From positions 8,011 to 72,010 of the forward strand of contig PLNF01000025.1 of NCBI GenBank assembly GCA_003141715.1: a DNA stretch of 64,000 nucleotides, in the 5' to 3' direction. Origin of the DNA: Bacteroidales bacterium. Lineage in GTDB: Bacteria > Bacteroidota > Bacteroidia > Bacteroidales > VadinHA17. This document shows positions 4,829 to 23,420 of the stretch, piece after piece. The position numbers and the translations under genes were made by a program. The stretch's first letter is position 1. Each line of letters starts with the position of its first letter. Under the pieces are notes generated by a model. It was not told the DNA's origin. It saw only the letters and a program-made list of their open reading frames with translations, and ran no database searches.

Positions 4829-5226
4829 TTTAGTCGTATCCAGGGAATTTTAGAAAATGTAAAACTCAGTTCTTATTAAACAAATATCAAATATCAAAAT
4901 TAAAATTTATTTCCATCAGGTTAAAAGTCTTTATCAAATTCTAAAGGCCAGTCATCAATTAAATTGATCTGTTCATAGAAATAAATAATTTTTATCACTT
5001 TTGCCACCAAAAACTTAATATTGTTCTTTGAAATCAAGATTGCATAGGGGTCGTAGAGCTTTTTAATTGGGTGTCGATTTGAAAAGGAATAACTATCATG
5101 GTTCTAATCAGACTTTAATTTATCAATTGGGGGTTGTTTAAAAAGTTAAATAATTGAGTGATTGTTTTATTTGTACAAGAGGTTTTTTAAAAATTATTAT
5201 AGCCACGAATGTGGCTAAATATGAAT

Positions 5227-5250
5227 AACCCCCGGCACCAGCCGGGGGTT
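5227..5250. repeat. REP-like hairpin, left copy (9-bp GC-rich stem, loop CACCAG)
   Basis: aacccccggcaccagccgggggtt. Preceded by atgaat, which is inverted (attcat) after the right copy. Confidence 0.8.
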
Positions 5251-5361
5251 GGCCAACACGATGATCAATAGCCCTGAAGGGGCGTAATATAGTTGGTAAT
5301 AATCAGATGTTTTTGTATTTTAGTACTATCTCGCTGTATTACTAATTTATTAATTCACAAA

Positions 5362-5808
5362 ATGTCAAGTTATCGTCAACATCTGTATCACCTTGTTTTC
5401 AGAACAAAGGACAGCCTTCCTGCTATTAAACAGGATCATGTCAATGAGCTATATGCCTATATTACAGGTATAGTAAAACATAAAAACAGTCACCTGTATC
5501 GTATAAATGGTATTGAAAATCACCTTCATATTCTTACGGATATGCATCCTTCAATTGCACCTGCGGATTTTATGCGAGAGGTCAAAGTATCATCTTCATT
5601 ATGGATGAAAAACAGTGGACTTTTTCCAACATTTAAAGGATGGGCAGTTGGGTATGGTTCTTTTACCTGCTCATATATGGATATGGATAGGTTGATAGAT
5701 TATGTTATGAATCAACAGGCCCATCACAAAAAATTAACATTTGAAGTGGAGTACAGGATTCTGCTGCAGGAGTATGGTATAATTCCAGATGAACGGTTTT
5801 TTCCTTAA
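5362..5808 (+). CDS. IS200/IS605-family Y1 (HUH) transposase, REP-associated tyrosine transposase (RAYT)-like
   Basis: YRQHLYHLVFRTKDSLP N-terminus, HUH motif in ENHLHILTD, and catalytic Tyr context DYVMNQQAHH (YxxxQ). ATG at 5362 preferred over the track start at 5293. Confidence 0.8.
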   Translation: MSSYRQHLYHLVFRTKDSLPAIKQDHVNELYAYITGIVKHKNSHLYRINGIENHLHILTDMHPSIAPADFMREVKVSSSLWMKNSGLFPTFKGWAVGYGSFTCSYMDMDRLIDYVMNQQAHHKKLTFEVEYRILLQEYGIIPDERFFP

Positions 5809-5856
5809 CTGTTATATTCAGCTCCTTCAGAGCTGCTGAAGGCTTGTTGTAGCTCC

Positions 5857-5880
5857 ACCCCCGGCACCAGCCGGGGGTTA
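5857..5880. repeat. REP-like hairpin, right copy
   Basis: acccccggcaccagccgggggtta. Same stem and same loop orientation as 5227-5250. Confidence 0.8.
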
Positions 5881-6656
5881 TTCATATCTGGCTCTTTCAG
5901 AGCCGTGATAAGTAATGTCATTTATTATTATGTTGTTATGCTACATTAGAATCTCTTTCTGAGTCGTTTTTTCAACCGAAAACATCTCATATCATATCAG
6001 TCCCATCTGCAAGGGTATTAATCCTTAATTTGTGGGCTAAAGTACATAAGTAAGTTATCTTAGTCCATTGGCCAAAGCCAATGGTAATTTAAAACTTACA
6101 AAAATCGATAAATTTCAATTACAGCGCCTTAAGTCGAAACTCCTTCAAAATAGCTACTTACAAATTACGCTTATACAAATGTTAAAGAATTAAAAAGAAT
6201 TAAATTGTATGAAGTCAAAATCAATTAAATGTAAATGGACACTAGTGATTCCCTTCCATAATCAAACTTTCAAGCGCCCTCAAAATTAAAAACCGGAAAG
6301 AGGAACTGAGTATTCCTGATTTCACCGGAATTTTCGTCCAAATATTTATGCCATTGGTCAAATAGTTGATAATTAAATTTCAGTACAATCCTTAGGTTTA
6401 TAACCTCTATATAAATCTAATTATATGAGCTTTATAATAATTGCACCAGCGGACTTTTTCAAACGTTCGATAATTGCTAATAAATTTCGTTCATTTTTGA
6501 CAAACGGAATAATTAGTATTATCAATAAATCTTTTTTATTGATTTACGCACAGTTTACATTGATTAACAATTAATGAAAACAGGCTGTTTTCAGGCTATA
6601 AGGGTTGCACCTATTGACTGAAAGCATCTTATTGCATAATTTTATTTTTGAAGAAT

Positions 6657-7373: not shown

Positions 7374-8825
7374 ATGGATTTCATTAGTTATCTGGATCGA
7401 CTCAAAATAGTTCCGTTTATAAAGAAATGGAATCTTCTAAATTTTATTCTGGGTACAATAGACATCCTGGCAATTTCACTTGCATTTCAATGCTCCTATT
7501 TTATAAACTATTTTCAAACCGGAGGTTTCTTTTTCTCCGAATCAAGATTCCTGGATCTTTTTCTTTTAATTACCCCTTTATGGCTGTTTATCTTATATTT
7601 AATAAAAATCACTGAGATCCCAAGGACTAAGAGGTACAGGGATCTGCTTATCGAATATCTCCGATCAACAATACTGATAATTATTCTTTTAGTGGTATTT
7701 TATTTTGTTTTTAAGCTGAATTTAATTTCCCGTATGTTCCTTATTGAGTTTACTGTTTTTGGTTTTCTTTTCTTATTTTTTGCCAGGTTGCTGGAGTATA
7801 AAGTATTTAAAATTTACAGGGCTAAGGGGTATAATTATAAAAATATTGTTTTAATAACAGATGAATCATCACTGTCATTTATTGAAAACCTTTTATTGTA
7901 TAAGGAGTGGGGATACAGGATAATTGCAATTTTTACCGGATCAGTTCAGCTCAGGGAAAAGTATGAAAAAACAATAATCCTGCTTCCTGAAGAATATATC
8001 AAGGTACTTAATGACCTGATGGAGGTTGATATTATTGATGAAGTTTTATATTTAAAAAAGAAGGTGATCCCTTCTGAAGTCAGAAACATAATCAGATCGT
8101 GTGAAGAATTAGGTGTTGTCTTCAGGCTTAGATATGAGGATGATAAGTTTAACCTTACCAGTGCCATAAAAACGAATCTTGCAGATGAAAAATTCCTGAA
8201 TTTTATCAATATACCTCATAACTTATATTCTCTTGCCATAAAAAAAATCATGGATATAACTATATCCCTTATTGTGATAATTTTATTATCTCCGTTTCTT
8301 TTAATTATTGCATTTCTGATAAAATTTTCATCAACCGGACCAGTAATATACAAGCAGACCAGGGTTGGATTAAGAGGACGGTTGTTTGATCTTTATAAAT
8401 TCAGGACTATGGTAGCCAATGCCGAAACACTGAAAAAGGATCTTGAGGAAGCAAATGAAATGGACGGCCCGGTATTCAAAATAAGAAACGATCCCCGCGT
8501 TATAAAGATCGGAAGATTTCTTCGCAAAACAGGATTGGATGAACTGCCTCAGCTTTTTAATATCCTGCAGGGCGAAATGTCATTAATCGGTCCGCGGCCT
8601 CCGATACCAGGCGAAATCCATCATTATAAACGATGGCAGCTCAGACGCCTTTCCGTTAAGCCCGGCCTCTCTTGTTTCTGGCAGATAAAACCCGACAGGA
8701 ACAGTATTAAGTTCGAAAAATGGATGGAACTGGATTTAGCCTATATTGATAACTGGTCTCTTCGATTGGATTTTGTCATTCTGCTTAAGACGATAAAAAC
8801 TGTTTTTCAGAGGACGGGATTGTAG
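7374..8825 (+). CDS. polyprenyl-phosphate sugar phosphotransferase (WbaP/EpsB-type initiating transferase)
   Basis: N-terminal TM bundle and a central Rossmann-like region. The C-terminal bacterial sugar transferase block reads GPVIYKQTRVGLRGRLFDLYKFRTM...DGPVFKIRNDPRV...GLDELPQLFNILQGEMSLIGPRPP. Confidence 0.9.
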   Translation: MDFISYLDRLKIVPFIKKWNLLNFILGTIDILAISLAFQCSYFINYFQTGGFFFSESRFLDLFLLITPLWLFILYLIKITEIPRTKRYRDLLIEYLRSTILIIILLVVFYFVFKLNLISRMFLIEFTVFGFLFLFFARLLEYKVFKIYRAKGYNYKNIVLITDESSLSFIENLLLYKEWGYRIIAIFTGSVQLREKYEKTIILLPEEYIKVLNDLMEVDIIDEVLYLKKKVIPSEVRNIIRSCEELGVVFRLRYEDDKFNLTSAIKTNLADEKFLNFINIPHNLYSLAIKKIMDITISLIVIILLSPFLLIIAFLIKFSSTGPVIYKQTRVGLRGRLFDLYKFRTMVANAETLKKDLEEANEMDGPVFKIRNDPRVIKIGRFLRKTGLDELPQLFNILQGEMSLIGPRPPIPGEIHHYKRWQLRRLSVKPGLSCFWQIKPDRNSIKFEKWMELDLAYIDNWSLRLDFVILLKTIKTVFQRTGL

Positions 8826-8838
8826 CAATGCCCGGAGC

Positions 8839-8875
8839 TTGGAACTTTGAACTTTGAACATGGAACTCCAGGCAC
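8839..8875 (+). repeat. heptamer array A (ttggaac tttgaac tttgaac atggaac + tccaggcac)
   Basis: Four tandem 7-nt units NTKGAAC followed by one 9-mer ending GGCAC. Lies in the 61-nt spacer between convergent genes. Confidence 0.85.
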
Positions 8876-8886
8876 TTCAATTCGGT

Positions 8887-10005
8887 TTATGTTTCTGAAA
8901 GCAAGTTAAACAAGTCAATATTAAGATAAATAGTTTCTTTCCCCACTTTCTTCGGAACCATAATTCCTAATTTCTCCATTTGTCCTAAATATTTCTTTGC
9001 TGTATTAATGCTCTTTATTCCCTGACCAATTAGTTTCTTTGGGCTTATATAAGGTTGTTCAAAGATCTTCTCAATAGTTTCTTTCCGGATATGCGGCAGT
9101 TTCAAGTTGATAAACTGGTTAGTCTTTTGAAACAAGTTGTCAATTTCATTTATTTTGTTTAAAGTGTAAATGGATGTTTCCTCAACAGCCTTTAGCATGT
9201 AAATGATCCAATCTTCCCATTTTCTTAAAGTAGTTACATTATTCAGTAAGGCATAGTAATCATCTTTGTTTTCAATTATGAATGCACTCAGGTAGAGAAT
9301 CGGTACATCTAACAGCTTTTTCTGAATCATTAGAAGAATGCTTAAAATTCTTCCTGATCGTCCATTGCCATCTCTGAAGGGGTGTATAGCTTCAAACTGG
9401 TAATGAGAAACTGCAAGTTTTATTAAAGGATCATATGAAAATTTAATGTCATTATTTAAGTAGTCAATAAGGTTATCTAATTTTTCCTGAATCACTTTTT
9501 CACCTCTTGGAGGAGTATATACCACTGTTCCTCCTAAAGTTCCTCTACCTCTTTTCTTAATAGTTGTTTCACTTTGGGCAGGACGGATCCCATCGTGTAT
9601 TTCTTTTATTTCCTGATAGATTTTTACCATTAATTCAATGTTAAAAATTCCCTTTTCAGTTATATCATTAAAGCCCTTCCATAATGCCTGGCGATATCTC
9701 AACACCTCCTTTGCATTCCCTTTTAATCCGGAATCATTTCCTGAAAGTGCTCTGTAAAGCTCATCATCGGTGGTGAAAATGTTTTCAATTTCAGTGCTGG
9801 CTTTTGCTTCCCTGAGCGAAATGGTATTTACTAACATTGACTGATTTGGAAGTCTTTTAGCCAGCCCTTTTAATTCTGCCAAAGCTCTGTTCGCTTTGTT
9901 TACTGCCTGTAATATTTCAATAGTGACAATTTTGTCATCAGGAGGCGGTAACAGGGGTAAATGATTGTAAGGTTCATTACGATCATATTGAATTTGATTT
10001 GACAT
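8887..10005 (-). CDS. Fic-family protein (class II, with internal inhibitory helix motif)
   Basis: Fic motif HPFRDGNGRSGR at 9349-9384. The upstream KASTEIENI fits the [ST]xxxE[GN] auto-inhibition motif. C-terminal winged-helix-like tail. Confidence 0.9.
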   Translation of the reverse strand: MSNQIQYDRNEPYNHLPLLPPPDDKIVTIEILQAVNKANRALAELKGLAKRLPNQSMLVNTISLREAKASTEIENIFTTDDELYRALSGNDSGLKGNAKEVLRYRQALWKGFNDITEKGIFNIELMVKIYQEIKEIHDGIRPAQSETTIKKRGRGTLGGTVVYTPPRGEKVIQEKLDNLIDYLNNDIKFSYDPLIKLAVSHYQFEAIHPFRDGNGRSGRILSILLMIQKKLLDVPILYLSAFIIENKDDYYALLNNVTTLRKWEDWIIYMLKAVEETSIYTLNKINEIDNLFQKTNQFINLKLPHIRKETIEKIFEQPYISPKKLIGQGIKSINTAKKYLGQMEKLGIMVPKKVGKETIYLNIDLFNLLSET

Positions 10006-10394
10006 GAAATTTCATTTTTGTCAAAAACTATATAATTATGACAAATATAGCTATATTATATCAAAATTCATTAATATTTGACATTTTGATGGAAATCCCG
10101 TCATACGTGACAGAACAAATGGCAATTGTCATATTATTGCATATTTTGACAGAAAAAAAATGATTATCAATAATTGAACCAAAGGCATGATAACTCAATT
10201 TAGTGTTAAAGTTGGCAAAAGGCGCCGGCCTTCGGTCGCCGAAGTCGACAGGCAAAGCCGACACTCAAAACCCGATGCCAATTGAAATTTACAGTCAGTT
10301 TGAAAGAAGTAATAATAAATCATAGTGGCAAATGATCATCCATGGTTACGGGAATTGAACAAAACTCGTATCTTTGACTTAACAATTTGTTGAT

Positions 10395-10709
10395 ATGAAA
10401 CGGACTTCAATTCTTGAAAATATTTCAAAGGCGATATACGAAAAAGATCCTGATGCAGAGGCTTTTCTTTTCGGATCACGAGCCCGTGGAGAAAATTATC
10501 CTGATTCAGATTGGGACATACTTATTCTAATAGATAATCTTGATATTACTAACGAGATTGAAGACAAATTCAGAGACGACCTTTATAATTTGGAACTTGA
10601 ATCAGGACAAATTATATCAACCTTTATATACTCAAAAGATTATTGGCAAAACTACCTGATCTTCTCCCCTCTTTATAAAAATGTTAAAAAGGAAGGTATC
10701 CGGCTATGA
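10395..10709 (+). CDS. MNT-type nucleotidyltransferase (antitoxin of a HEPN/MNT pair), copy 1
   Basis: FGSRARGENYPDSDWDILIL is the GSxxxG...DxD polymerase-beta-like NTase motif. ATGA overlap with the next ORF. Confidence 0.85.
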   Translation: MKRTSILENISKAIYEKDPDAEAFLFGSRARGENYPDSDWDILILIDNLDITNEIEDKFRDDLYNLELESGQIISTFIYSKDYWQNYLIFSPLYKNVKKEGIRL

Positions 10710-10891
10710 AGATTGAAAATAAAGACGAATATATCAAATATAGATTCCAAAGAGCGGAAGAATCGCTTGATGATGCTTTAATCGTGGGAGACTATGGAGA
10801 CCTTTTCGACTTTGATGACAAAATAGTTCTGCCACTTGTTGATCAAGTTAAAGATTTTGTAACAGAAATTAAAAAATTGATTGACCAATAA
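10706..10891 (+). CDS. HEPN-domain remnant (in-frame internal deletion of about 68 aa)
   Basis: 61 aa. Residues 1-25 align with residues 1-24 of the 129-aa HEPN at 11435-11824, and GDYGDLFDFDD... aligns with its residues 95 onward. The helical core between them is missing. Confidence 0.6.
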   Translation: MKIENKDEYIKYRFQRAEESLDDALIVGDYGDLFDFDDKIVLPLVDQVKDFVTEIKKLIDQ

Positions 10892-10933
10892 TAATAGCCG
10901 CTTAAGAGAATAAATGGCTGTACCGAGAAGAAG

Positions 10934-11062
10934 TTGGAAGTCCGAAGTCTGAAATTGGAAATCCCCAAGGTCAATGTTGTTCAGGCATTGTCCACATGGA
11001 ACATGGAACCTGGAACGTTGAACTTTGAACCTGGAACATTGAACTACTGGCACTTTAGGCAC
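10934..11062 (+). repeat. heptamer array B
   Basis: Degenerate units ttggaag tccgaag tctgaaa ttggaaa at 10934-10961. Core at 10996-11044: atggaac atggaac ctggaac gttgaac tttgaac ctggaac attgaac. Then the 9-mers tactggcac tttaggcac (11045-11062). Confidence 0.85.
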
Positions 11063-11114
11063 TTTAGTTCATTTTAGCCACTCCACACTTAGTTAAGTTT
11101 TATATATTTGCCAT

Positions 11115-11432
11115 ATGAAAACCAATAAATCAATAGTGCTTTCCAGGATCAAGACTATGGTCATGATAATTGATCCAACTGCAGAGGTTATTCTTTATGG
11201 TTCCAGAGCCAGAGGAGATGAGAATCCAGACTCAGACTGGGATATTTTAATACTCGTAAATTCCAAAACAGATTTAGATTATGAAAGGGTTTTCCGTCAT
11301 AGATTGTACGAAATTGAACTTGAATTAGATGAGGCCTTTTCAATTTATGTTTATAATAAAGATGAATGGAAATCAAAGTATTGGATGACTCCTCTTTATC
11401 AAAATATAGATAGTGAAGGATTAAGAATCTGA
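11115..11432 (+). CDS. MNT-type nucleotidyltransferase, copy 2
   Basis: YGSRARGDENPDSDWDILILV. A paralog of 10395-10709, with just under half the residues identical by eye. Confidence 0.85.
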   Translation: MKTNKSIVLSRIKTMVMIIDPTAEVILYGSRARGDENPDSDWDILILVNSKTDLDYERVFRHRLYEIELELDEAFSIYVYNKDEWKSKYWMTPLYQNIDSEGLRI

Positions 11433-11434
11433 CT

Positions 11435-11824
11435 ATGAAGACTACTCAAAACGATTATATAAAGTACAGATTTGATAGAGCATGGAAAACATTTGAGGAT
11501 GCAAAATCTCTTGCAATCCTTAAAAGCTGGAACTCATCAATGAATCGGTTGTACTATGCTTGCTTCTATGCTGTGCTAGCATTATTAACAAAAAATAATA
11601 TTAATAGCCACACTCACTCCGGTGCCAAGACTCAATTGTCTCTTCATTTTGTCAAGACGGGGAAGCTTGATAAGAAGTTTGGAATGCTATTTGGAGACTT
11701 GTTTGATCTCAGACAGAAAGGTGATTATGGTGACTTCTTTGACTTAAAAGAACTAGATATTATAACGTTGATTCCCAAAGTCGAAGATTTTTTGATGAAA
11801 ATTGAGACGTTAACTAAAGAATAA
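11435..11824 (+). CDS. HEPN-domain protein (putative toxin), full length
   Basis: 129 aa, helical. Carries the conserved LRQKGDYGDF segment. Starts 2 nt after the MNT stop. Confidence 0.8.
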   Translation: MKTTQNDYIKYRFDRAWKTFEDAKSLAILKSWNSSMNRLYYACFYAVLALLTKNNINSHTHSGAKTQLSLHFVKTGKLDKKFGMLFGDLFDLRQKGDYGDFFDLKELDIITLIPKVEDFLMKIETLTKE

Positions 11825-11861
11825 AAACACCTTTATCTTATCCTTTGTTAATTCTGCTGTC

Positions 11862-11921
11862 CCTGAACCAGGAACCAGGAACCTGGAACTTTGAACATGG
11901 AACACCAGTTACTTTATGCAC
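11862..11921 (+). repeat. heptamer array C
   Basis: cctgaac caggaac caggaac ctggaac tttgaac atggaac, then the 9-mers accagttac tttatgcac. Same orientation and same internal order as arrays A and B. Confidence 0.85.
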
Positions 11922-11938
11922 TCTGAAAATAAAAACTT

Positions 11939-14900
11939 TCATTTGTGAATCAGGAGTTTCTTTACTCCTATGATAATACCTTCTGAATACATTTCTACAA
12001 TATAAAATCCCGTCTTGAAGTTAACCGGAATCTGCAAATTATTGATACCGGCTGCAATAATATTATCATACATCAATTTCCCGGATTCATCTATGATCTT
12101 TACGCTGACAGGTTTAAGCAAAGGTTCCTCAAATGAAATATTAAAGAATGTCTGCGCCGGATTTGGGAACAGAATTATGTTAGTTTTACTGCTGCTCAGT
12201 TGTTTTTCCTGAGAATACCCATAAATTTTTAATTCTGAAATATGGTTCCATGTATCGGTTGCATTCCCATGACCTATTATTTTCACAAAGGAGTATTCAT
12301 TACCGGCAAATGAAGCAGGAAAATCAAATACCTGAAGATTACCGGAAAAAGAGCAGGATGCAGCATTTATCAGAACCGGATCCCATGTCAGACTATCCTT
12401 TGATGCATAAATATCAAAGACATCTCCGGTCTGATCATTCGGAAAAGATAACAGTAAATAACTTATTTTGAAAGGGCTGAAGAGACCGGATATTATCCAT
12501 TGGTCATCGCCTTTGGAAGACCATTGAGTTTCAGTCTTTCCATCAGCAATATTATTGGGATAATCCGGAGCAGAATAATTAACCGCTGCTATATTCACTA
12601 TTTTTGCTTCATCAAGTCCTGGTTTATATGGAAGAATAACTATCTGAATAGTTTTTGATTGAATTGCTATCCCGTCAGTAACTTTAACAATAAATTCTAT
12701 TGTATCTCTTGCGCTGACAACTGGTGCCAGAAATTGAATATCAGGATCAGTGACAGAAGAGATGGGCACGTTATCAGGAGAACTCCACTCGAAAATCAGA
12801 TTATCATTGTTTAAATCATATGTGCCTGAGGCATCTATTTCGCCAATAAATCCTGAATTACAGCTGGTTAAATAATTCAATACGATTACAGGAGGGTCAT
12901 TGGAATGACCTATATTATTTGTCACAGATTGAGCACTTATCGTTACTGCCTGGCCTCCGGAAGCTGTCTGTAACGGATTTGTGGCTGGTTTATTATAAGC
13001 GACGGTTACAACATCACCATTAACTGCCGGACTTGAAAGCGTCAACTGAACCTTTGTTCCGGAAATGGAAACTCCGGTAACGGTTCTGGCAACGGTATTT
13101 ACCCTGACTGTGAAAGCTGAAGCAGCAGGTACAATATTTGCAAGGCTCAGATTATATGTTATTGACAGCAATGTAGGAGTAGCATTCTGTACTACAGAAC
13201 TGGTATAAACCGGGTTTACAGAATTAACATTATTAGTCACTGCCTGAGCGCTGATTGTGGCTGCCTGTCCACCCGCAGGTGTCTGTAATGGATTACCTGC
13301 AGGCTTTGTATAAGCGACGGTTACAACATCACCATAAACTACAGGACTTGAAAGTGTCAACTGAACCTTTGTTCCGGAAATGGAAACTCCCGTAACGGTT
13401 CTGGCAACAGTATTTACCCGTACTGTGAAAGCTGAAGCTGCAGGTACAATATTTGCAAGGCTCAGATTATATGTTATTGACAGCAATGAAGGAGCAGCAT
13501 TTTCTATAACGGAACTGACATAAACCGGGTTGTTTGATATTACTAGAGTTGCATAACAACCAATATTTGGTGGATTAATAAAAGCTTTGCCCTCATAATC
13601 TGTTGTGATTCCGGGAATTGCGATACCTGCACCAATAGCAGGAGAACTTGTACTTAAATGTAAATCATTAGGTTCACTTATAAACTGAGGGTTAACAAGT
13701 CCGGGGTCATGTGTCTGCCATCCTAACGTAGATTTCATAGTAGCCCAACTAGCTCTCTTATAATTTGAGCCTGCATGTATTATATCTAAGTTATCATCGG
13801 CTTGATAAAATAAATTATAATCACAAAAAATCTCACTTAACGATTGCCCTCTACCCCCATCTGTCACAATAATTTCACATGCAGAATAATTCGCTGCATA
13901 AGAACATAACCCATAAAAAATATTGTTTTTTACAACAACACCAATACAACCATCAGATATATACAAGTGAGCATCTATTCCACCTGCTTCAGCAGATGTC
14001 AAAAGTGTATTCTGAGAATAGAATGTATTATTATAAACACTTACATTACTTGCATGGTCTAACCAAATACAGCTTTGTGATGAACCTGCCCATATATTAT
14101 CATAAATTTGAATATTATTTGTTGTACACCCCGAAGAATACGCTTTGACTGTACACATTTCATTAGCATCAAATCCATCAGCTACAGCATGTCTCGCAGG
14201 ATTGTCCCATATAAAATTTCTTCTTATAATAATATTATTAAAACTATTACCAGTTTCCGAATCATCGTTTACAATACCCACTCCTGATGAATGGTATCCA
14301 TCATGCAAATTATTATCCTCAAATATGATATTTGAAAATGTTAAATTATCAGTGCCCACTACATGGACTGAAGTATTTCTTCGTCCTCCATCATGAATTT
14401 CATTATTTTGAACGAGTAAATCATTTCTGCAGACTGCTAAATGATAACCTAATCCTTGTGCTCTACATCCCACATAACTTATATGACAATTTTTGATTGT
14501 TAATCCTGTCGTATTCTCCTGCGGATATTCAGTCCATACAGTTCGTGCTGAGGCAAATTGCATATCAATCCCATCTATTGTAATATATTGCTTATTATCA
14601 ATAAAGATGCAACTTGCCCTTGCAGGAACTTCAACAGAAGTATATCTTGAATTTGGGTCGGTAGGAGAATAGATATATATTTGGTTACTATTCCATGTCC
14701 AATTAAACTCTGCCGTCAAATTTGAAAAGTTAGATGTATATGTTTTCTTTGCTACCCCCCAAGTAACATTTCCGGGTGTTGTAACAAAAAATATCTCATA
14801 ACCATAAGTCGAGCCTCCACCATAAGGGAATGTCGGATTATATGGGTCAGTTACAGAAGTTGCAGAAACCCATATATTAGCATGCCCTTCGGCTGTCCAT

Positions 14901-15205
14901 GATACTGCTTGTGTTGAACCTAATATCAATGGATTAGAACTAGTTCCATAATTACCAAATGTAATGTAATTACCTGCTGCACCAGAAGAAGGGACTGTAA
15001 GTTGCTCTCTCCAAATACTGCCACGTTTAAAAAGGATAGAATCACCTGGTGAAAATGACCTTCCATTTATCTTAGATATGGTTGCCCAGGCAGTCAGATC
15101 TGTTAACCCATTTGCAGCATCACTTCCTCCGTTCTTAACATAATAGTTCGTGCCAGAAGCGATAGAACTAATCGTTAAAAACAGCATTACAAAAGCTTTA
15201 TTCAT
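11939..15205 (-). CDS. secreted right-handed beta-helix protein with 2 Ig-like repeats, PKD-like and F5/8-type-C-like domains and a T9SS C-terminal sorting domain
   Basis: Signal peptide. TNYYVKNGGSDAANGLT plus many N/D-rich beta-helix turns (NNIF.GN). Two 105-aa repeats. A discoidin-like NIADGKTETQWSS block. C-terminal ILFPNPAQTFFNISF...GFYIVEMYS...KKLLIHK is typical of the Por secretion tail. Confidence 0.8.
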   Translation of the reverse strand: MNKAFVMLFLTISSIASGTNYYVKNGGSDAANGLTDLTAWATISKINGRSFSPGDSILFKRGSIWREQLTVPSSGAAGNYITFGNYGTSSNPLILGSTQAVSWTAEGHANIWVSATSVTDPYNPTFPYGGGSTYGYEIFFVTTPGNVTWGVAKKTYTSNFSNLTAEFNWTWNSNQIYIYSPTDPNSRYTSVEVPARASCIFIDNKQYITIDGIDMQFASARTVWTEYPQENTTGLTIKNCHISYVGCRAQGLGYHLAVCRNDLLVQNNEIHDGGRRNTSVHVVGTDNLTFSNIIFEDNNLHDGYHSSGVGIVNDDSETGNSFNNIIIRRNFIWDNPARHAVADGFDANEMCTVKAYSSGCTTNNIQIYDNIWAGSSQSCIWLDHASNVSVYNNTFYSQNTLLTSAEAGGIDAHLYISDGCIGVVVKNNIFYGLCSYAANYSACEIIVTDGGRGQSLSEIFCDYNLFYQADDNLDIIHAGSNYKRASWATMKSTLGWQTHDPGLVNPQFISEPNDLHLSTSSPAIGAGIAIPGITTDYEGKAFINPPNIGCYATLVISNNPVYVSSVIENAAPSLLSITYNLSLANIVPAASAFTVRVNTVARTVTGVSISGTKVQLTLSSPVVYGDVVTVAYTKPAGNPLQTPAGGQAATISAQAVTNNVNSVNPVYTSSVVQNATPTLLSITYNLSLANIVPAASAFTVRVNTVARTVTGVSISGTKVQLTLSSPAVNGDVVTVAYNKPATNPLQTASGGQAVTISAQSVTNNIGHSNDPPVIVLNYLTSCNSGFIGEIDASGTYDLNNDNLIFEWSSPDNVPISSVTDPDIQFLAPVVSARDTIEFIVKVTDGIAIQSKTIQIVILPYKPGLDEAKIVNIAAVNYSAPDYPNNIADGKTETQWSSKGDDQWIISGLFSPFKISYLLLSFPNDQTGDVFDIYASKDSLTWDPVLINAASCSFSGNLQVFDFPASFAGNEYSFVKIIGHGNATDTWNHISELKIYGYSQEKQLSSSKTNIILFPNPAQTFFNISFEEPLLKPVSVKIIDESGKLMYDNIIAAGINNLQIPVNFKTGFYIVEMYSEGIIIGVKKLLIHK
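12902..13531 (-). repeat. two tandem 315-bp (105-aa) near-identical coding repeats
   Basis: The string gacggttaca recurs at 13001 and 13316 (period 315). Both peptide repeats read LLSITYNLSLANIVPAASAFTVRVNTVARTVTGVSISGTKVQLTLSSP... Confidence 0.9.
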
Positions 15206-15490
15206 GTGTACATTGTTTTGACAGACGTAATTTTTTCATTGACAAACACACGATATTAAACGACAATCCAGACTTTTTGTTACATTAATTTTCTTTAAAA
15301 TTATTGGCAATTTATGAATATAGTAAAAACCTCATTTAAAGACGAACCTATATGAAGGTAAACAGCAACTTTGAAATAATATTCAAGGATATAATATTCA
15401 TTTAGTTACTAAATAAAAACCCGGATAAAATTATCAGCGTTTAAAATTCAAGAGTAGATGAAAATCAGTTTCCCTGATAATACGAATTCT

Positions 15491-16387
15491 TCAAATTTTG
15501 ACCGCTTCCATATACATTACGAATTTATTGTCTTCATTATCAAAATAAGCTTCATTTCGCATTACAGGGGATGCACTTTGTTCCCTTGAAGAAAGATAAA
15601 TTGATTTAAATCCGGCAAGCCTCAGCATTCTCTCAAGCTTCTTTGCATTCCACCAGTTTATATGGTCCTGACGATGTTTTTTTTGTATTTCAACTGAACA
15701 TTTTGAGGTACAAAAATCTAATGCATCTTCCATCTTTTTAGTCTTTAAAAGATCCCGGAATTGTTCGTCAGTTATTCTTTCAGCTACACCATCGGGATGA
15801 ATTGAAGAAAGTTGCGATGCCACATGAAATAAAAAGGCTTGCTCTATAGAAACAGTTTTATCATTTTCAAACCAATAAAAAAAAGTCATATCATTATTAA
15901 AGTATGCTCTGTAATCAAGATCAATATTGGGTGTTGATATCCTGAATATTCCTCCGTTTTTAAGGATCCTGTGCACTTCACCGAACAGATATTGAGCAGC
16001 TGCATCAGTAATGGATGCAATTGTAAATCTTGTATGTACGAGTTCAGCTGCAGAAGTTTCAACAGGAAATGGCTCCATTGCAAGCATATCACAGAAAATA
16101 TCACGTTCCGGGTTATAGACAACTCCTTTTTCACCCAATTGAGCTTTATTCCATTGCCGGTCAACATCAATTTTGGTCCAGCAGGGATGATTCATTCCGC
16201 CTCCGAATCCCAGATATGAACCTGCTGAAATATTATAAAATCTTCTGTGTTTAACACTTTCTTCTCCATATAATTTTATGTATAATGGCAAATCATCATT
16301 TTTAATTACAACACGTTTAATAGTAAATCCAAAAAGACTGACTATTTTTTCTGCTATTTTTTTGACTGCATTCTTTATCTCTTTCAT
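15491..16387 (-). CDS. class I methyltransferase-fold protein, paralog 1
   Basis: FYNISAGSYLGFGGG...HPCWTKIDVD and EVHRILKNGGIFRISTPN resemble MTase motifs I and post-II. More than half the residues match the upstream paralog by eye. Confidence 0.5.
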   Translation of the reverse strand: MKEIKNAVKKIAEKIVSLFGFTIKRVVIKNDDLPLYIKLYGEESVKHRRFYNISAGSYLGFGGGMNHPCWTKIDVDRQWNKAQLGEKGVVYNPERDIFCDMLAMEPFPVETSAAELVHTRFTIASITDAAAQYLFGEVHRILKNGGIFRISTPNIDLDYRAYFNNDMTFFYWFENDKTVSIEQAFLFHVASQLSSIHPDGVAERITDEQFRDLLKTKKMEDALDFCTSKCSVEIQKKHRQDHINWWNAKKLERMLRLAGFKSIYLSSREQSASPVMRNEAYFDNEDNKFVMYMEAVKI

Positions 16388-16391
16388 AGCT

Positions 16392-17258
16392 TTAGTTTTT
16401 AACAGCTTCCATATACATCATAACCTTAATATGTTCATTATCGAAATAGTAATTATTCCTTAATACGGGTGAAGCACTCTGTTCCGGAGCTGAAAGGTAA
16501 ACTGTTTTAAATCCTGCAAGACTAAGCATCCTTTCATATTTTTTCTGGTTCCACCAGTTGAAATGATCATACCTGTTGTTTTTATGAATCTCTGGAGAAC
16601 ATCTGGAGACACAGTAATTTAAGGCATCTTCATAATTCATTGTTTTTAGAAGCTGCTTAAATTCTTCATCACTGATCTTTTCTGTAGAAGGGCCATTATA
16701 AAGAATAGAAACCTGAGTAACCACATGAAACAGGAAAGCCTGTTCTATTGAAATACTATCCTCCAGCCAGAAGAAATAATCTTTATCATTATTTTTATAT
16801 GCCCTGAAATCAAGATCCAGATTTGTGGATACTATTCTGAAAATGCCTCCTTTTTTAAGGATCCGGTGAACCTCATTGAAAAAATACTGAGCAGCCTCAT
16901 CGGTCAGACGATCAACTGTAAAGCGGGAATGGACCAACTCAGCTGTCGCAGTCTCAACAGGAATCGGTTTCATTGAAAGCAGATCGTGTGAAATATCAGA
17001 CTCCGCATTATATTCAACCCCTCCGGGGAAATATTTGTCATTTTTCCAGGGTTTATCAACATCTATATTGGTCCAGCAAGGATGGTTTATCCCCCCGCCA
17101 AAACCTTTAAAAGCGCCAGTTGAAATATTATAAAATTTGCTATTCTTAACACTTTCACTGCCATAAAGATCTATATATATGTCCGAATCATCTTGATTCG
17201 TGATTTTTTTAAGCTCAAATCCTAGATAACTGAGAAATTTTTTAAAGATTTTTTTCAT
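16392..17258 (-). CDS. class I methyltransferase-fold protein, paralog 2
   Basis: Collinear with paralog 1 (HPCWTNIDVD, EVHRILKKGGIFRIVSTN). Only 4 nt separate the two ORFs. Confidence 0.5.
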   Translation of the reverse strand: MKKIFKKFLSYLGFELKKITNQDDSDIYIDLYGSESVKNSKFYNISTGAFKGFGGGINHPCWTNIDVDKPWKNDKYFPGGVEYNAESDISHDLLSMKPIPVETATAELVHSRFTVDRLTDEAAQYFFNEVHRILKKGGIFRIVSTNLDLDFRAYKNNDKDYFFWLEDSISIEQAFLFHVVTQVSILYNGPSTEKISDEEFKQLLKTMNYEDALNYCVSRCSPEIHKNNRYDHFNWWNQKKYERMLSLAGFKTVYLSAPEQSASPVLRNNYYFDNEHIKVMMYMEAVKN

Positions 17259-17512
17259 AGACGTAATTGCAATTTGTTAATCTTCAGCATTAAAAGTTTT
17301 AAGGTCTTAAAATGCCTAATATATTCATTGTTACAGCCCGATATTCTATTTATTTATGAACTATCAACCAATAAATAAATGTTAATAGCTAATAATCAAT
17401 ATTTAAATTAGCAAAAAGATCAACTAACTAATTTAGAATTAATGAATCTTTGAAGTGTCCCATTGATGCCAAACAAAACTCTTGATTATTAGTCAGCCAA
17501 AGAAAATGAAAC

Positions 17513-18721
17513 CTAAAGATTATTGTTCATAAGTTTTCTATCTGAACAATGAGTCAATGGTTTAAAGATACGAAACAAGCAAAAGATTATTGAGAATGCA
17601 TTCACAATAAGTATTAATAATATAATTCCAAAACTAAAGTCGTTCCTGATATAATAGAGATAAATAAAAAGAGGCCCAGATAAAATAGCCAGCAAAATTA
17701 AAACCTGTTTAAGGCTTGGATGCAAAATCTTAATAGCATAAAAAACAAAATAATAGACGAATAGAAAACTAAGAAGATGCAGAAAAATGTTCCCAAAAAT
17801 TAAGAATTCTTTATTTTGATCATTTAATTCCTGTGACGAATAAACCCCATATCTATATATCTTCAATTTATTTAAGACTTTTTTTAATAAATTATACTTG
17901 AAAGAATTTGCCTGATAAAGAACTTTATTAAAGTTTTCTATTTTAGCCAGATCTGAAAAAGTATAAAAACTGATTTCTTGTTTCGTTATCGAATTAAGAA
18001 GAGAATCAAGGTAATTGAGGCTAATTCGAGGTGCTATAATATTTGGATATTTAAATGAGTTCTCAATAAAAGAATATGGGTGAAATAAGAAAACAATAGT
18101 AGCGTCATCATCTATATTTTTATCAATAATGTCGGCCAATTCAAAAAAATCTCCAAATGTTGCCGGTATGTATTTAATTTCTTCATAAGTACATCCACCA
18201 TACATATCACCTGAAATAATTTTGAAATTCAAATCTATTAATGCTTTCAAAGTATTGTTATCATAGGTATCGAAAGGAGGGACAAAAACATTTGTCTCAA
18301 TGTTAAACAGGCTATCCAATGCTTTTTTCCCTTTCGATAGCTTATCAAACTGTTTAAAATAGCTTAAAGAACCAAACTCGCTATAAGTCTTTTTATTCAG
18401 GAAATAAGGTCTTAAGATATTAATATGGTTAAAACCATGTAGGGCAACTTCAATTTCCTTCTTTTGAATTCTTGATCTTAAATCATTAATTTGTTCTTGA
18501 TTAAGTTTATTAATAATTAAATTAGTACTATCAAACGGAATTATCCCCAGACATAAAGGAATGTTGTTCTTATGGAAAATGTATAAAAGGGAATCGCAAA
18601 ATTTTGATGGAACTAAGATGTAATCATCATATCGAAATACAATTTTCATTTTCCCCCTTGCATTTGCGGAGAAAAAACTTAAAAAAACTAAAGAGACAAT
18701 AAAAAGAAGTTTGTTTTTCAT
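17513..18721 (-). CDS. polysaccharide-deacetylase-like (DUF2334/NodB-like) protein with C-terminal TM segments
   Basis: Signal peptide, then IVFRYDDY, ALHGFNH and VFVPPFDTYDNNT blocks. Three to four hydrophobic helices in the last 100 aa. Confidence 0.5.
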   Translation of the reverse strand: MKNKLLFIVSLVFLSFFSANARGKMKIVFRYDDYILVPSKFCDSLLYIFHKNNIPLCLGIIPFDSTNLIINKLNQEQINDLRSRIQKKEIEVALHGFNHINILRPYFLNKKTYSEFGSLSYFKQFDKLSKGKKALDSLFNIETNVFVPPFDTYDNNTLKALIDLNFKIISGDMYGGCTYEEIKYIPATFGDFFELADIIDKNIDDDATIVFLFHPYSFIENSFKYPNIIAPRISLNYLDSLLNSITKQEISFYTFSDLAKIENFNKVLYQANSFKYNLLKKVLNKLKIYRYGVYSSQELNDQNKEFLIFGNIFLHLLSFLFVYYFVFYAIKILHPSLKQVLILLAILSGPLFIYLYYIRNDFSFGIILLILIVNAFSIIFCLFRIFKPLTHCSDRKLMNNNL

Positions 18722-19076
18722 ATGTAGACTGATTAGTAACTTATATATAATCCAATGAAATTAATAAAAACTCTTATTTAAATTTAAATTATGCCTTCGC
18801 TTTGATTTGATCCAAAGATATAAATTGATTGAATATAAAAAAGGGTATTTGAACTTATGAAAATATCATGAATCAGACTCAGGAAATCAATTCACAGCAA
18901 TGATGGCTGTTGTAGAGTTCCACTAATTCATAAAAAATAATTACCAATTAATAAATGATTTATAATATTTTATAATTGGTACAATCAAGAGACCGAATAA
19001 CAGTATTTGACTTATAAATAAAATGTTTAAATTTATAGCAATCCAAATTATATAGAAAATCCGTAATCTAAAAAAA

Positions 19077-20519: not shown

Positions 20520-20632
20520 TTAGTAGATATTTGAATTAATTTAATTCCAATTCAAAAAGTGCAATAAAAAATCACTAATACCTGATCAATAATTAAACCC
20601 AATTTTATAATATCTTTATTCTTTTCGAACCG

Positions 20633-22384: not shown

Positions 22385-22633
22385 AAGCTTAAATATTATT
22401 CCTTTACACAAAATTAACAACAAATTTTGACAAGTATTCTGTTTAGAATGATTTGACTGATTATTTTAACATTTAATCATTTACTTTGTTAGAAAAAAAA
22501 TATTTACACTTATCCTTTGTTAAAATTCTGCGGAGATAATTGTTCGGGTCGCTTAGATTTTATATTTTTGTTAAAATCAAAAGAAAGTTTTTAAGAAAAT
22601 CAGATGTTGTAAATTGGTTTATTTAAATTTTAT

Positions 22634-23413: not shown

Positions 23414-23420
23414 TATTTCT

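Follow-up and report, generated by a model that had tools for sequence, protein, structure and literature searches.

Composite heptanucleotide repeat modules at the joints of a toxin-antitoxin-type cassette island in a Bacteroidales genome

Repeat arrays and cassettes of the island

In the window, i.e. the whole 64-kb stretch of DNA analysed here, three arrays of a TKGAAC-type heptanucleotide are located at the joints of an inserted island of 3.1 kb. The island comprises three cassettes (Fic; MNT with a deleted HEPN; MNT with HEPN) and separates a sugar-transferase gene from a gene encoding a T9SS protein. In the closest relative, the same two genes flank an empty site with one array. The arrays are heptanucleotide simple-sequence repeats. 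They make up the period-7 component of composite extragenic repeat modules, the other components being 9-mers of the TAGGCACTT family and flanking inverted arms, together with a GC-rich hairpin at one joint. The modules are located immediately past gene ends, and one is present at every cassette boundary of the island, counting a probable decayed copy. We tentatively regard them as slippage-maintained extragenic repeat modules serving as joints for cassette gain or loss, an explanation that is quite possible but falls short of being probable.

Table 1. Features of the cassette island and its flanks, in positions of the window
Feature	Position	Strand	Description or basis
Sugar-transferase gene (CoA_binding_3 + Bac_transf)	7374–8825	+	ORF; left anchor of the island
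Left stem arm enclosing array A, AATGCCCGGAGCT	8827–8839	+	Fold prediction
Array A	8839–8866	+	Sequence reading; four NTKGAAC units: TTGGAAC TTTGAAC TTTGAAC ATGGAAC
Right stem arm, AACTCCAGGCACT, containing the cap TCCAGGCAC	8864–8876	+	Fold prediction
Array A cap, TCCAGGCAC	8867–8875	+	Single unit of the 9-mer family, directly 3' of array A
Cassette 1: Fic gene (Fic_N, Fic, SoFic-like_C)	8887–10005	−	ORF, Pfam gene table
GC-rich hairpin element, AAGGCGCCGGCCTTCGGTCGCCGAAGTCGACAGGCAAAGC	10219–10258	+	Aligned with the L130 homologue
Candidate decayed fourth array (CGACACT CAAAACC CGATGCC AATTGAA ...)	~10259–10300	+	Position behind the hairpin, alignment
Cassette 2: MNT1 (10395–10709) and internally deleted HEPN (10706–10891)	10395–10891	+	ORFs, Pfam gene table
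Degenerate block 5' of array B	10933–10990	+	Four AGTYNGA units (10933–10960) and cap-like TTCAGGCATTG (10980–10990)
Array B	10996–11044	+	Sequence reading; seven clean NTKGAAC units
9-mer block 3' of array B	11045–~11090	+	TACTGGCAC TTTAGGCAC (11045–11062), then TTTAGTTCA TTTTAGCCAC ...
Cassette 3: MNT2 (11115–11432) and intact HEPN2 (11435–11824)	11115–11824	+	ORFs, Pfam gene table
Array C	11862–11903	+	Six units: CCTGAAC CAGGAAC CAGGAAC CTGGAAC TTTGAAC ATGGAAC
Array C caps, ACCAGTTAC TTTATGCAC	11904–11921	+	Directly 3' of array C
Right flank, from the array C caps up to the T9SS gene stop	11904–11938	+	Collinear with the right flank of the L130 array
T9SS-tailed surface protein gene (SWM_repeat, Por_Secre_tail)	11939–15205	−	Right anchor of the island

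Reading of the sequence and Tandem Repeats Finder, which reports a period of 7 at all three array sites and a period of 9 for GGCACTTTA, confirmed the coordinates and the tandem units of the original prediction (Table 1). The arrays share the same orientation, as had been stated, all three being on the + strand, and the stops of the upstream + strand ORFs were found where they had been placed, at 8825, 10891 and 11824. All three arrays are intergenic, between called genes, and arrays A and C lie between convergent genes. We then searched the 64-kb window for the motif. The three-unit pattern with at most two mismatches and the exact two-unit pattern TKGAACNTKGAAC each gave 11 matches, against 0.04 expected, and in both searches all 11 were inside the three arrays; no two-unit TKGAAC match was found in the 64 kb outside arrays A, B and C.

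Including their caps, the three arrays are 81% identical over 47 nt. The common ending tttgaac (a/c)tggaac that had been attributed to all of them is found in arrays A and C, but array B has one unit extra and ends with TTTGAAC CTGGAAC ATTGAAC. Likewise, the GGCAC-type caps are indeed present after the arrays, but they belong to a tandem-repeat family of their own (the TAGGCACTT family), also found in relatives. Behind array B, two or three further decaying 9-mers follow TACTGGCAC TTTAGGCAC and reach ~11090. The degenerate block on its 5' side resembles an older array followed by its cap, or else a run of reverse-type units, judging from a comparison with the reverse-type units AGTTTGG and AGTGCCTAG of relatives. 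Units of different kinds (AGTYNGA, NTKGAAC and 9-mers) therefore adjoin in the array B block, as they do in many public loci.

The island cassettes are of a selfish, toxin-antitoxin type; the Pfam families of the island genes were taken from the gene table of a 100% identical contig (L001). The Fic gene converges on the sugar-transferase gene, the stop of the latter being 13 nt before array A and that of the former 20 nt beyond it. The HEPN of cassette 2 is an internally deleted copy of 61 aa, and the homologues of cassette 3 are 63–84% identical and belong mostly to Bacteroidota. MNT1 and MNT2 share 43% identity, in agreement with the earlier statement that the two MNT/HEPN pairs had diverged to under half identity, and they are less alike than the array copies (81% over 47 nt). 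The island is 100% identical in nine contigs from independent samples, among which neither length variation of the arrays nor any recombination intermediate or polymorphism was seen. The genes within 10 kb on either side include no recombinase family, the sole mobile-DNA gene being Y1_Tnp.

Hairpins and 9-mers around the arrays

Array A is the loop of a predicted 13-bp stem (8827–8839 / 8864–8876; z −2.35 on the − strand), and a similar but weaker stem encloses array C. The folds of the array B and C regions were no better than those of shuffled sequences (z +0.4 to −0.6), that of array A being marginal. The arrays had been described as having no obvious terminator hairpins; no terminator-like site was predicted at any of them, but dyad symmetry does exist, in the form of the stems around arrays A and C. 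No clear U tract follows the stem around array A, and no array combines a G+C-rich stem-loop with a U tract, as an intrinsic terminator would. A covariance-model search against Rfam 15 likewise gave no curated RNA family, with no gathering-score match in the window and only chance-level matches (E above 1) for positions 8700–12100.

The left stem arm, AATGCCCGGAGCT, is orthologous to a 9-mer in reverse orientation, AAGTGCCTGGAGTT, located behind the stop of the same gene in two relatives (L131 and L196). This 9-mer part is kept behind the sugar-transferase stop in relatives whose gene is only 72–78% identical, and in relatives the repeats trail this stop only where the usual operon partner does not directly follow. 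As for the GC-rich hairpin element, its homologue in the closest relative (L130) directly precedes the single array of that genome. A candidate fourth array sits behind the hairpin of the window, at the place of the single array in L130, and alignment extends over the first ~20 nt. Positions ~10259–10300 are thus probably a decayed fourth array, which would be the joint between the Fic cassette and MNT1, although this evidence is weak on its own.

Empty site in the closest relative

The sugar transferase of L130 is 88% identical to that of the window at the amino acid level (87.6% at the nucleotide level), and its T9SS gene shows 94% amino acid identity (best tblastn segment). In this relative the two genes are adjacent, with no Fic, MNT or HEPN gene between them, and their 126-nt spacer consists of the hairpin, one array and its cap. 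The spacer is collinear with positions 8726–8866 of the window joined to positions 11904–12040, the only gap in the alignment being the 45-nt hairpin, which is found in the window at 10219–10258. The L130 array matches array A at 26 of 27 positions, and its right flank matches that of array C. L130 is therefore an empty site with a single array and without cassettes, and the comparison backs one of the roles originally proposed for the arrays, that of cassette boundary or recombination site. The direction (gain or loss) cannot be told from this single pair of an empty and a filled site. Moreover, the L130 array (26/27) is better kept than the adjoining gene (87.6%), which could indicate constraint rather than turnover.

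Arrays and cassettes in other genomes and phages

Arrays of four TKGAAC units were found in more than 120 species genomes from about 16 phyla, and in more than 120 viral contigs. They usually abut gene ends, often as inverted pairs: 40 of 120 genome arrays lie at most 40 nt from a stop, 27 of these 40 being within 9 nt, and 43 of 120 have an inverted partner within 150 nt. In many phyla the modules begin 0–10 nt past stop codons. In phage contigs, a Shine-Dalgarno site and start codon often follow an array at a distance of 10–30 nt. The arrays border the neighbouring gene with their GAAC-3' end. Relative to co-directional neighbours, there is no clear strand bias (32 vs. 25). Similar arrays are also commonly formed by permuted control heptamers, which indicates that period 7 is the general feature, rather than the TKGAAC sequence. 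The TKGAAC arrays are more often heterogeneous at their free positions (54% vs. 19–38% in the controls), T and GAAC being kept while N and K vary, a core conservation that is partly forced by the search pattern.

The original prediction had the arrays maintained by selection. This was not demonstrated, the arrays of phage contigs varying in copy number, presence and heptamer. Copy number, which is constant in the nine identical contigs and about four units in L130 as in array A, differs between related phage contigs, with 11 vs. 2 units (L269 vs. L329). A whole module of 57 nt is present in one and absent from the other of two contigs that are 99.6% identical (L222 vs. L287). At an orthologous phage site, a different heptamer is found with the inverted-pair layout retained (L290 vs. 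L270), and elsewhere the array is swapped for unrelated DNA at a mosaic junction (L318 vs. L281). Mixed pairs with non-complementary arms also occur (L241). Given this turnover, clean arrays next to genes that have diverged can be explained by slippage, homogenisation or a recent common origin. When related phage loci are compared, homology breakpoints lie near arrays in 23 of 140 cases vs. 3.0 expected, but on inspection many of these only reflect an alignment that breaks at arrays of variable length, and duplicate contigs of a single phage account for several.

We also looked at the cassettes in other contexts. Another polysaccharide locus (L522–L525) contains tandem MNT-HEPN cassettes, with a HEPN 84% identical to HEPN2 and with arrays of 7–8 nt units, including TGGAACT x3, at every gene junction. 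This locus is an independent replicate of cassettes with arrays at their joints. It is the one context with arrays out of seven independent contexts of close HEPN homologues; the other six are array-free, and cassettes therefore also move without arrays. Conversely, 1.86 Mb of array-bearing loci yielded no homologue of MNT, HEPN or Fic; arrays do not regularly accompany MNT/HEPN cassettes. Close HEPN homologues adjoin tRNA genes or integrases, which is other evidence that the cassettes are mobile. One copy (L529) lies between 45-nt imperfect direct repeats, these being local sequence, namely a terminator hairpin beside a tRNA gene.

Origin and role of the arrays

If the modules are joints, replication slippage, possibly with gene conversion between copies, would create the arrays and keep their units uniform, which would explain clean arrays beside cassette genes only 43% identical. 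The repeated copies would then supply a register-tolerant homology of ~47 nt at 81% identity. A cassette could be gained when a circular or linear donor recombines at the resident array, and lost by recombination between flanking direct copies, leaving one array. Such a scheme would require no conserved sequence-specific binding protein. Further points argue against it: 47 nt at 81% identity is a poor RecA substrate, and a 3'-end element travelling with its gene would also mark every cassette boundary.

It is possible, but rather unlikely, that the arrays are non-causal, i.e. passive slippage scars or a pre-existing target, the cassettes having been inserted by an unrelated route (an integrase in trans or illegitimate recombination) that duplicated or carried local sequence. 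Heptamer arrays of arbitrary sequence are indeed common, with a quick turnover, and the L529 cassette shows that the same family can be flanked by direct repeats of local sequence. Heptamers have moreover been reported as the most abundant class of longer simple-sequence repeats, which was ascribed to polymerase slippage (Mrazek 2007, as reported in PMC4679880). However, a module of the same family at each of four joints is more than a single target duplication yields, and the motif is absent from the rest of the 64 kb. The arrays also lie much closer to gene ends than would be expected of random intergenic sequence, and the retention of the 9-mer part behind the same stop codon in relatives with a diverged gene does not fit passive scars either. 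This proximity to stops, with the frequent inverted partners, would fit 3'-end or intercistronic elements acting at the RNA level, with one copy per cassette: an imperfect long hairpin or an unstructured spacer after the stop would stabilise or terminate the upstream transcript, or would space or insulate the next start. The stem around array A, the inverted-pair layout retained despite a different heptamer, the position of phage arrays upstream of Shine-Dalgarno sites, and the dependence of the relatives' repeats on the absence of a directly following operon partner all point the same way. We nevertheless consider such a role unlikely in view of the absence of predicted terminator-like sites and of Rfam matches, the shuffle-like folds of arrays B and C and the only marginal one of array A, the lack of a clear strand bias and the mixed pairs whose arms are not complementary.

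Explanations based on the sequence of the unit are weaker still. The TKGAAC core could be bound by an iteron-like protein, a regulator or a nucleoid protein, or represent tandem ECF-sigma-type −35 boxes (GGAAC/TGAAC); the constancy of T and GAAC in heterogeneous arrays is consistent with it, and the core presumably resembles the ECF −35 motif. Binding of this kind is very unlikely, as successive sites spaced by 7 bp do not share one face of the duplex, unrelated heptamers build the same layout at orthologous sites and permuted cores are common, while part of the apparent conservation comes from the search pattern. In addition, arrays A and C need no promoter between convergent genes, and no −10-like partner was read at a fixed spacing. 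The iteron-like role initially put forward is thus not supported, permuted heptamers forming similar arrays. IS91-family elements are reported to target GAAC/CAAG, and the repeated GAAC (and CTTG in CTTGAAC units) might be an insertion site for HUH-type transposases, IS91-like or IS200/IS605-like, with mobile DNA joining immediately 3' of the array. The GAAC-3' end abutting the neighbouring gene and a Y1 transposase gene 3 kb upstream would fit, but this last explanation is highly improbable: the local Y1 gene has GC-rich hairpins of its own on its flanks, unrelated to the arrays, the cassettes lack hairpins of their own at the left and right ends (the only one also occurs at the empty site of L130), no IS91-type gene is located within 10 kb, and heptamers without GAAC behave alike.

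Returning to the modules as joints, a broader version would make 7–9 nt tandem-repeat modules a general cross-phylum signature and the working part of cassette joints in bacteria and phages, either as register-tolerant recombination linkers which move small selfish cassettes between array-bearing sites, or as templated-synthesis scars of the break repair that joined the cassettes. This generalisation is doubtful, but if true it would give a mechanistic meaning to the unexplained excess of heptamers in prokaryotes. The locus offers a clean natural comparison, three cassettes with a module at every joint vs. an empty site with one in a relative, and the scans of public data show TKGAAC arrays in many phyla and phages which hug gene ends and change by gain or loss of whole modules, copy number and unit swap. 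Both ideas, recombination joints and 3'-end modules, are now directly testable; if neither holds, a striking and apparently conserved repeat beside toxin cassettes would be ordinary microsatellite-type DNA.

Relation to known repeat families

The element had been called unrecognised. Its class is known (PMC4679880, PMC4692102, PMC2700814): the arrays belong to the intergenic heptanucleotide tandem repeats (LSSR or STRR type), with head-to-tail 7-nt units (4, 7 and 6), above chance, outside coding sequence and with adjoining blocks of different units. For the TKGAAC unit itself, we found no description in the literature on heptanucleotide repeats. An excess of period-7 repeats in the intergenic DNA of prokaryotes has been on record for decades (STRR), and a survey of LSSRs confirmed it in 2007 (Mrazek 2007, as reported in PMC4679880 and PMC4692102); it still has no accepted function or cause. 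As far as these papers describe them, the cyanobacterial STRRs and period-7 LSSRs are likewise intergenic head-to-tail heptamers of a few to a dozen units, with families side by side and a scattered phylogeny; they are dispersed, whereas the TKGAAC-N unit is rare here, with three arrays in 64 kb, all at a single cassette island.

The GGGAATC repeats of Xanthomonas and GGGGAYT repeats of Nostoc (Rehm et al. 2015, PMC4692102) mostly have about four units, form many convergent inverted pairs and are intergenic, 0–50 bp from start or stop codons. They are not kept at the same genes between close species, and the TKGAAC arrays of public loci behave alike; however, their G-rich units form G-quadruplexes, which TKGAAC cannot. 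The TAACTGA direct repeats of Beggiatoaceae, Cyanobacteria and some Bacteroidetes (MacGregor 2015, PMC4679880) also occur in distant phyla, often just upstream of starts, are mixed with other heptamers in Bacteroidetes spacers and are missing from the orthologous spacer of close relatives. Besides their different unit, they show a strong same-strand bias upstream of starts, with a proposed translational role, whereas arrays A and C are flanked by convergent genes. That the TAACTGA repeats may take part in gene rearrangement has also been suggested (PMC4679880).

Other systems were rejected. Iterons are repeats of ~17–22 bp by a rep gene or origin, while the present unit is 7 nt and unspaced, with no rep gene nearby. 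Phase-variation contingency repeats sit within a reading frame or amid the promoter elements of a gene and vary in length in the population, which does not fit the location of arrays A and C between convergent gene ends, nor the constant length in the nine contigs. Enterobacterial REP/BIME elements are also composite modules of short repeats, in alternating orientation and just after stop codons, but with 35-nt palindromic units instead of tandem 7- and 9-mers. BIMEs have been linked to mRNA 3'-end protection and to rearrangements. A REP/REPIN system with a RAYT, whose palindromic units of 20–40 nt would also surround the RAYT gene, was discarded: the RAYT-like Y1_Tnp gene (5293–5808) has ACCCCCGGCACCAGCCGGGGGTT on its flanks, a sequence without relation to the arrays. 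As regards integrons, the arrays contain no R''-L''/L'-R' imperfect palindrome of attC, their reverse-strand unit is GTTCMAN and not GTTRRRY, there are only short stems around arrays A and C, and the genes up to 10 kb away on both sides include no integron integrase. Like integron attC arrays, the island nevertheless consists of small, promoter-poor cassettes, typically of toxin-antitoxin genes, with a repeated site at the boundaries of each and one left at the empty position; in the island these sites are tandem repeats, and one cassette is inverted relative to the others.

Heptamer arrays in the cassette island

The original prediction announced three arrays of the heptamer NTKGAAC around the Fic and MNT/HEPN cassettes. 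Sequence reading, Tandem Repeats Finder and pattern counts against shuffles confirmed them with small corrections. Tandem Repeats Finder reported a period of 7 at all three arrays and a period of 9 (GGCACTTTA) 3' of array B. Every NTKGAAC run is directly followed on its 3' side by 9-mers of type TCCAGGCAC, TTTAGGCAC or TTTATGCAC (the caps), and the three arrays with their caps share 81% identity across 47 nt. On the 5' side of the clean part of array B, four AGTYNGA units and a cap-like TTCAGGCATTG were also found. Searches with three units (at most two mismatches allowed) and with two exact units each gave 11 matches in 64 kb, where 0.04 were expected from dinucleotide-preserving shuffles. 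In both searches all 11 matches fell within the arrays and none elsewhere in the window.

Genes, arrays and repeat elements (window coordinates unless a contig is named; arrays from sequence reading of 8400-12400)
Feature	Position	Strand	Context or content
Sugar transferase gene	7374-8825	+	5' of array A
Array A	8839-8866	+	4 NTKGAAC units
Fic gene	8887-10005	-	between array A and MNT1
GC-rich hairpin element	10219-10258		between Fic and MNT1
MNT1 + 61-aa HEPN	10395-10891	+	between Fic and array B
Array B, clean part	10996-11044	+	7 NTKGAAC units
MNT2 + HEPN2	11115-11824	+	between arrays B and C
Array C	11862-11903	+	6 NTKGAAC units
T9SS-tailed protein gene	11939-15205	-	3' of array C
AAGTGCCTA / TAGGCACTT tandem 9-mers	L131 1590-1760		
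AAGTGCCTA / TAGGCACTT tandem 9-mers	L158 5195-5350		
AAGTGCCTA / TAGGCACTT tandem 9-mers	L173 9450-9520		
AAGTGCCTA / TAGGCACTT tandem 9-mers	L196 7298-7560		
AAGTGCCTA / TAGGCACTT tandem 9-mers	L208 8895-8945		
57-nt module site	L222 5100-5175 vs L287 1600-1640		GTTCTAT x2, GTTCAAC / GTTGAAC, CTTGAAC ...

The MNT/HEPN pairs have diverged to less than half identity, as initially noticed, with 43% identity between MNT1 and MNT2. In alignment, the 61-aa HEPN that partners MNT1 (10706-10891) covers only residues 4-23 and 96-129 of the intact HEPN2. It is an internally deleted copy and probably a dead toxin. T9SS components and the source names of the HEPN homologues both point to Bacteroidota. 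Within the 200 nt 5' of the Fic start codon (10015-10165), we observed six TGACA/TGTCA motifs together with the region's best sigma-70-like promoter matches; these motifs may be operators through which the Fic cassette regulates itself.

Occupied and empty sites

A scan of metagenome contigs with the sugar-transferase protein yielded 80 related loci. The sugar-transferase gene of the closest one (L130) shows 88% amino acid and 87.6% nucleotide identity to that of the window, and for the T9SS gene amino acid identity reaches 94% in the best segment. In this locus the two genes are direct neighbours, separated by a spacer of 126 nt with no Fic, MNT or HEPN gene. The spacer contains the GC-rich hairpin known from the window, a single array (CTGAAAC TTTGAAC TTTGAAC ATGGAAC) and one cap, and it aligns collinearly with window 8726-8866 fused to 11904-12040. 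Its array is identical to array A at 26 of 27 positions, while its right flank matches the right flank of array C. Only the 45-nt hairpin leaves a gap in this alignment; in the window, this hairpin precedes a stretch that looks like a decayed fourth array. The window therefore displays three cassettes and four modules (heptamer array, 9-mers and flanking inverted arms, with a hairpin at one joint), against zero cassettes and one module in L130. Modules serving as joints of cassette gain or loss would produce such a pattern. Every cassette joint has one module and the empty site of the close relative retains one, in support of the cassette-boundary role suggested in the original prediction.

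TKGAAC arrays and the Fic and MNT/HEPN cassettes are all absent from the remaining 79 relatives (67-78% identical). Nine contigs with the same HEPN were all 100% identical, hence uninformative on strain variation, and contig L001 is likewise 100% identical to the window. Samples that contain this strain include ENA ERZ28656106 and JGI 3300036885 and 3300038461. In about 35 relatives, genes encoding a Wza-like (256 aa) and a Wzc-like (789 aa) protein begin about 20 nt past the sugar-transferase gene; this arrangement, without repeats, is that of most relatives. In the window these two genes are found at 22634-25796; a block of about 13.8 kb is therefore specific to the window lineage and L130. 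This block (8826-22633) includes the cassette island and the T9SS-protein genes.

The caps are a repeat family separate from the heptamers. In five relatives whose sugar-transferase gene has another 3' neighbour than the Wza-like and Wzc-like genes (L131, L158, L173, L196 and L208), runs of AAGTGCCTA (reverse complement: TAGGCACTT, as in the window) begin 3-10 nt past the sugar-transferase stop. Forward copies lie 100-190 nt beyond the reverse runs in L131, L158 and L196, forming an inverted 9-mer pair around 100-190 nt of non-coding DNA. Moreover, the window stretch just past the sugar-transferase stop (AATGCCCGGAGCTTGG) is orthologous to AAGTGCCTGGAGTTTGG of L131 and L196. This orthology and the post-stop 9-mers of the relatives indicate that the 9-mer part has been kept here across substantial divergence. 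Made from short tandem units, the junction modules show a rough dyad layout.

TKGAAC arrays in public genomes and viral contigs

According to the summaries in two papers, heptanucleotide tandem repeats are the commonest longer simple-sequence repeats of prokaryotes, with the STRR in cyanobacteria (PMC4679880, PMC4692102). TAACTGA repeats occur in Beggiatoaceae, Cyanobacteria and Bacteroidetes, and a role in gene rearrangement has been suggested in some Bacteroidetes (PMC4679880). In Xanthomonas, the GGGAATC repeats, mostly of four units, are found no more than 50 bp from gene ends, frequently as inverted pairs, and lack conservation between close species (PMC4692102). Several heptanucleotide families are also present in Geobacter metallireducens (PMC2700814). 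Literature searches for TKGAAC repeat strings matched only unrelated primer sequences, and those for phage or gene-boundary repeats matched only organelle papers. The TKGAAC arrays are apparently a new unit, itself not described, within this known but unexplained class.

Scanning one genome per species with a four-unit TKGAAC pattern (GAACNTKGAACNTKGAACNTKGAAC), we found at least 120 stretches; for 596 Gb of uniform sequence, our own arithmetic gives an expectation of about 0.5 matches. Among the matches listed, 80 titles represent about 16 phylum-level groups, e.g. Acidobacteriota, Verrucomicrobiota, Cyanobacteria and Patescibacteria. Viral contigs also contained at least 120 stretches; in the same contigs, three control patterns obtained by permuting the four fixed letters matched 86, 67 and 42 stretches. 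Arrays of many heptamers are therefore common, and TKGAAC is among the commonest. Heterogeneity at the free positions concerns 54% of the TKGAAC arrays vs 19-38% of the controls. Public arrays mostly have about 4 units and sharp edges; as they end abruptly after about 4.5 units, they offer no unbiased sample outside the seed for comparing conservation of N and of the core.

Among the 120 usable listed genome arrays, 40 have the stop of an opposite-strand ORF (at least 100 codons) within 40 nt of their GAAC-3' end, at 9 nt or less for 27 of them. Only 15 follow a same-strand stop within 40 nt upstream, and 43 have an inverted partner within 150 nt. In phage contigs, arrays also precede a Shine-Dalgarno site and start codon by 10-30 nt. 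No clear strand bias was found between co-directional neighbours (32 vs 25, from crude ORF calls).

We then looked for a general link between the arrays and the cassettes. With tblastn, no homologue of MNT, HEPN or Fic was detected in 1.86 Mb from 240 array-bearing loci, and only one of seven contexts of close HEPN2 homologues (63-84% identical) has arrays; both a general association and a common travel with the MNT-HEPN cassette were thus rejected. In the array-bearing context (L522-L525), MNT-HEPN cassettes stand in tandem within a different polysaccharide locus, and each junction has 7-8-nt arrays, including TGGAACT x3, AGTTTCAG and AACCCTGA x25. The six other contexts have no arrays and are found beside tRNA genes, integrases or further toxin genes. 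Imperfect 45-nt direct repeats of a local hairpin flank the cassette of L529. The cassettes are thus mobile by several routes, and the arrays belong to certain recipient lineages or loci rather than to the cassette.

In the Bacteroidota polysaccharide locus of L522 (1535-4650), 7-8-nt tandem arrays occupy all gene junctions, and the cassettes comprise the tandem MNT-HEPN pairs and also 23S_rRNA_IVP fragments interrupted by a GIY-YIG gene. At 2378-2580, where the 25 copies of AACCCTGA are found, the gene caller annotated an opposite-strand 105-aa ORF.

Array turnover in phage contigs

Related phage contigs differ in copy number (11 vs 2 units in L269 and L329). A 57-nt palindromic module is exactly present or absent between L222 and L287, which are 99.6% identical. 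L290 and L270 carry inverted pairs of different heptamers at an orthologous site, 5' of the same gene. Between L318 and L281, an array is exchanged for 150 nt of unrelated DNA at a mosaic junction. In related array-bearing loci, 23 of 140 homology breakpoints were near arrays vs 3.0 expected; as a more sensitive alignment attributed many of them to breaks at length-variable arrays or to duplicate contigs, this enrichment was discarded as evidence of recombination.

The 57-nt module of L222/L287 is bordered by TTATAT and TTTTAT, resembling a short target duplication. In viral contigs L223, L228, L231, L241 and L290, a conserved motif (CTCTYTTYCCCAAC) lies between the arms of heptamer pairs. In L241 the arms differ and are non-complementary (GCATAGA vs YTTGAAC), and the central motif may be the functional element there.

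Possible roles of the modules

The arrays are period-7 simple-sequence repeats inside composite extragenic modules. Slippage, perhaps with conversion between copies, would keep them uniform, and the repeated copies would have served as the substrate for cassette gain or loss; a conserved sequence-specific reader would not be needed. Maintenance by selection, as initially proposed, was not demonstrated. As main alternatives, the arrays could be passive scars, or the modules could work at the RNA level, as 3'-end or intercistronic elements. The RNA role agrees with the placement of modules just past stop codons and with a dyad layout that is conserved while its sequence changes, but folding statistics at the window arrays are poor. 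Array A is the loop of a 13-bp stem with arms AATGCCCGGAGCT (8827-8839) and AACTCCAGGCACT (8864-8876), whose fold on the minus strand has a z-score of -2.35; the equivalent stem of array C is weaker, and array B does not fold better than shuffles. The lack of terminator features also weakens this RNA role, no terminator-like site being predicted at A, B or C. In Rfam, no match reached the gathering score, with only chance-level matches at E up to 10.

On the evidence so far, arrays acting as sequence-specific binding sites are unlikely, and so are arrays acting as targets of an HUH transposase. The reading as ECF-sigma -35 boxes was rejected: no consistent -10 partner was found, and A and C face gene ends. 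The array sequence does not fit the layout of integron attC sites, iterons or CRISPR, and these were ruled out. So was a REP/RAYT link, since the Y1 transposase of the window has its own hairpins, unrelated to the arrays. Together, the comparison of occupied and empty sites and the wide distribution of the family open the long-standing question of heptamer repeats to testing.

The Y1 transposase gene (PF01797; ORF 5293-5808; region 5214-5892) is located between identical GC-rich hairpins ACCCCCGGCACCAGCCGGGGGTT (5228-5250 and 5857-5879), inside a 45-nt inverted repeat. The corresponding L130 spacer has no ORF of at least 90 aa. Gene and hairpins look like a RAYT gene with REP elements. Finally, a low-GC Bacteroidetes contig has a GC-rich stretch of about 170 nt (L526 1490-1660) 5' of an MNT-HEPN pair; this stretch resembles a structured RNA or the remnant of a mobile element.
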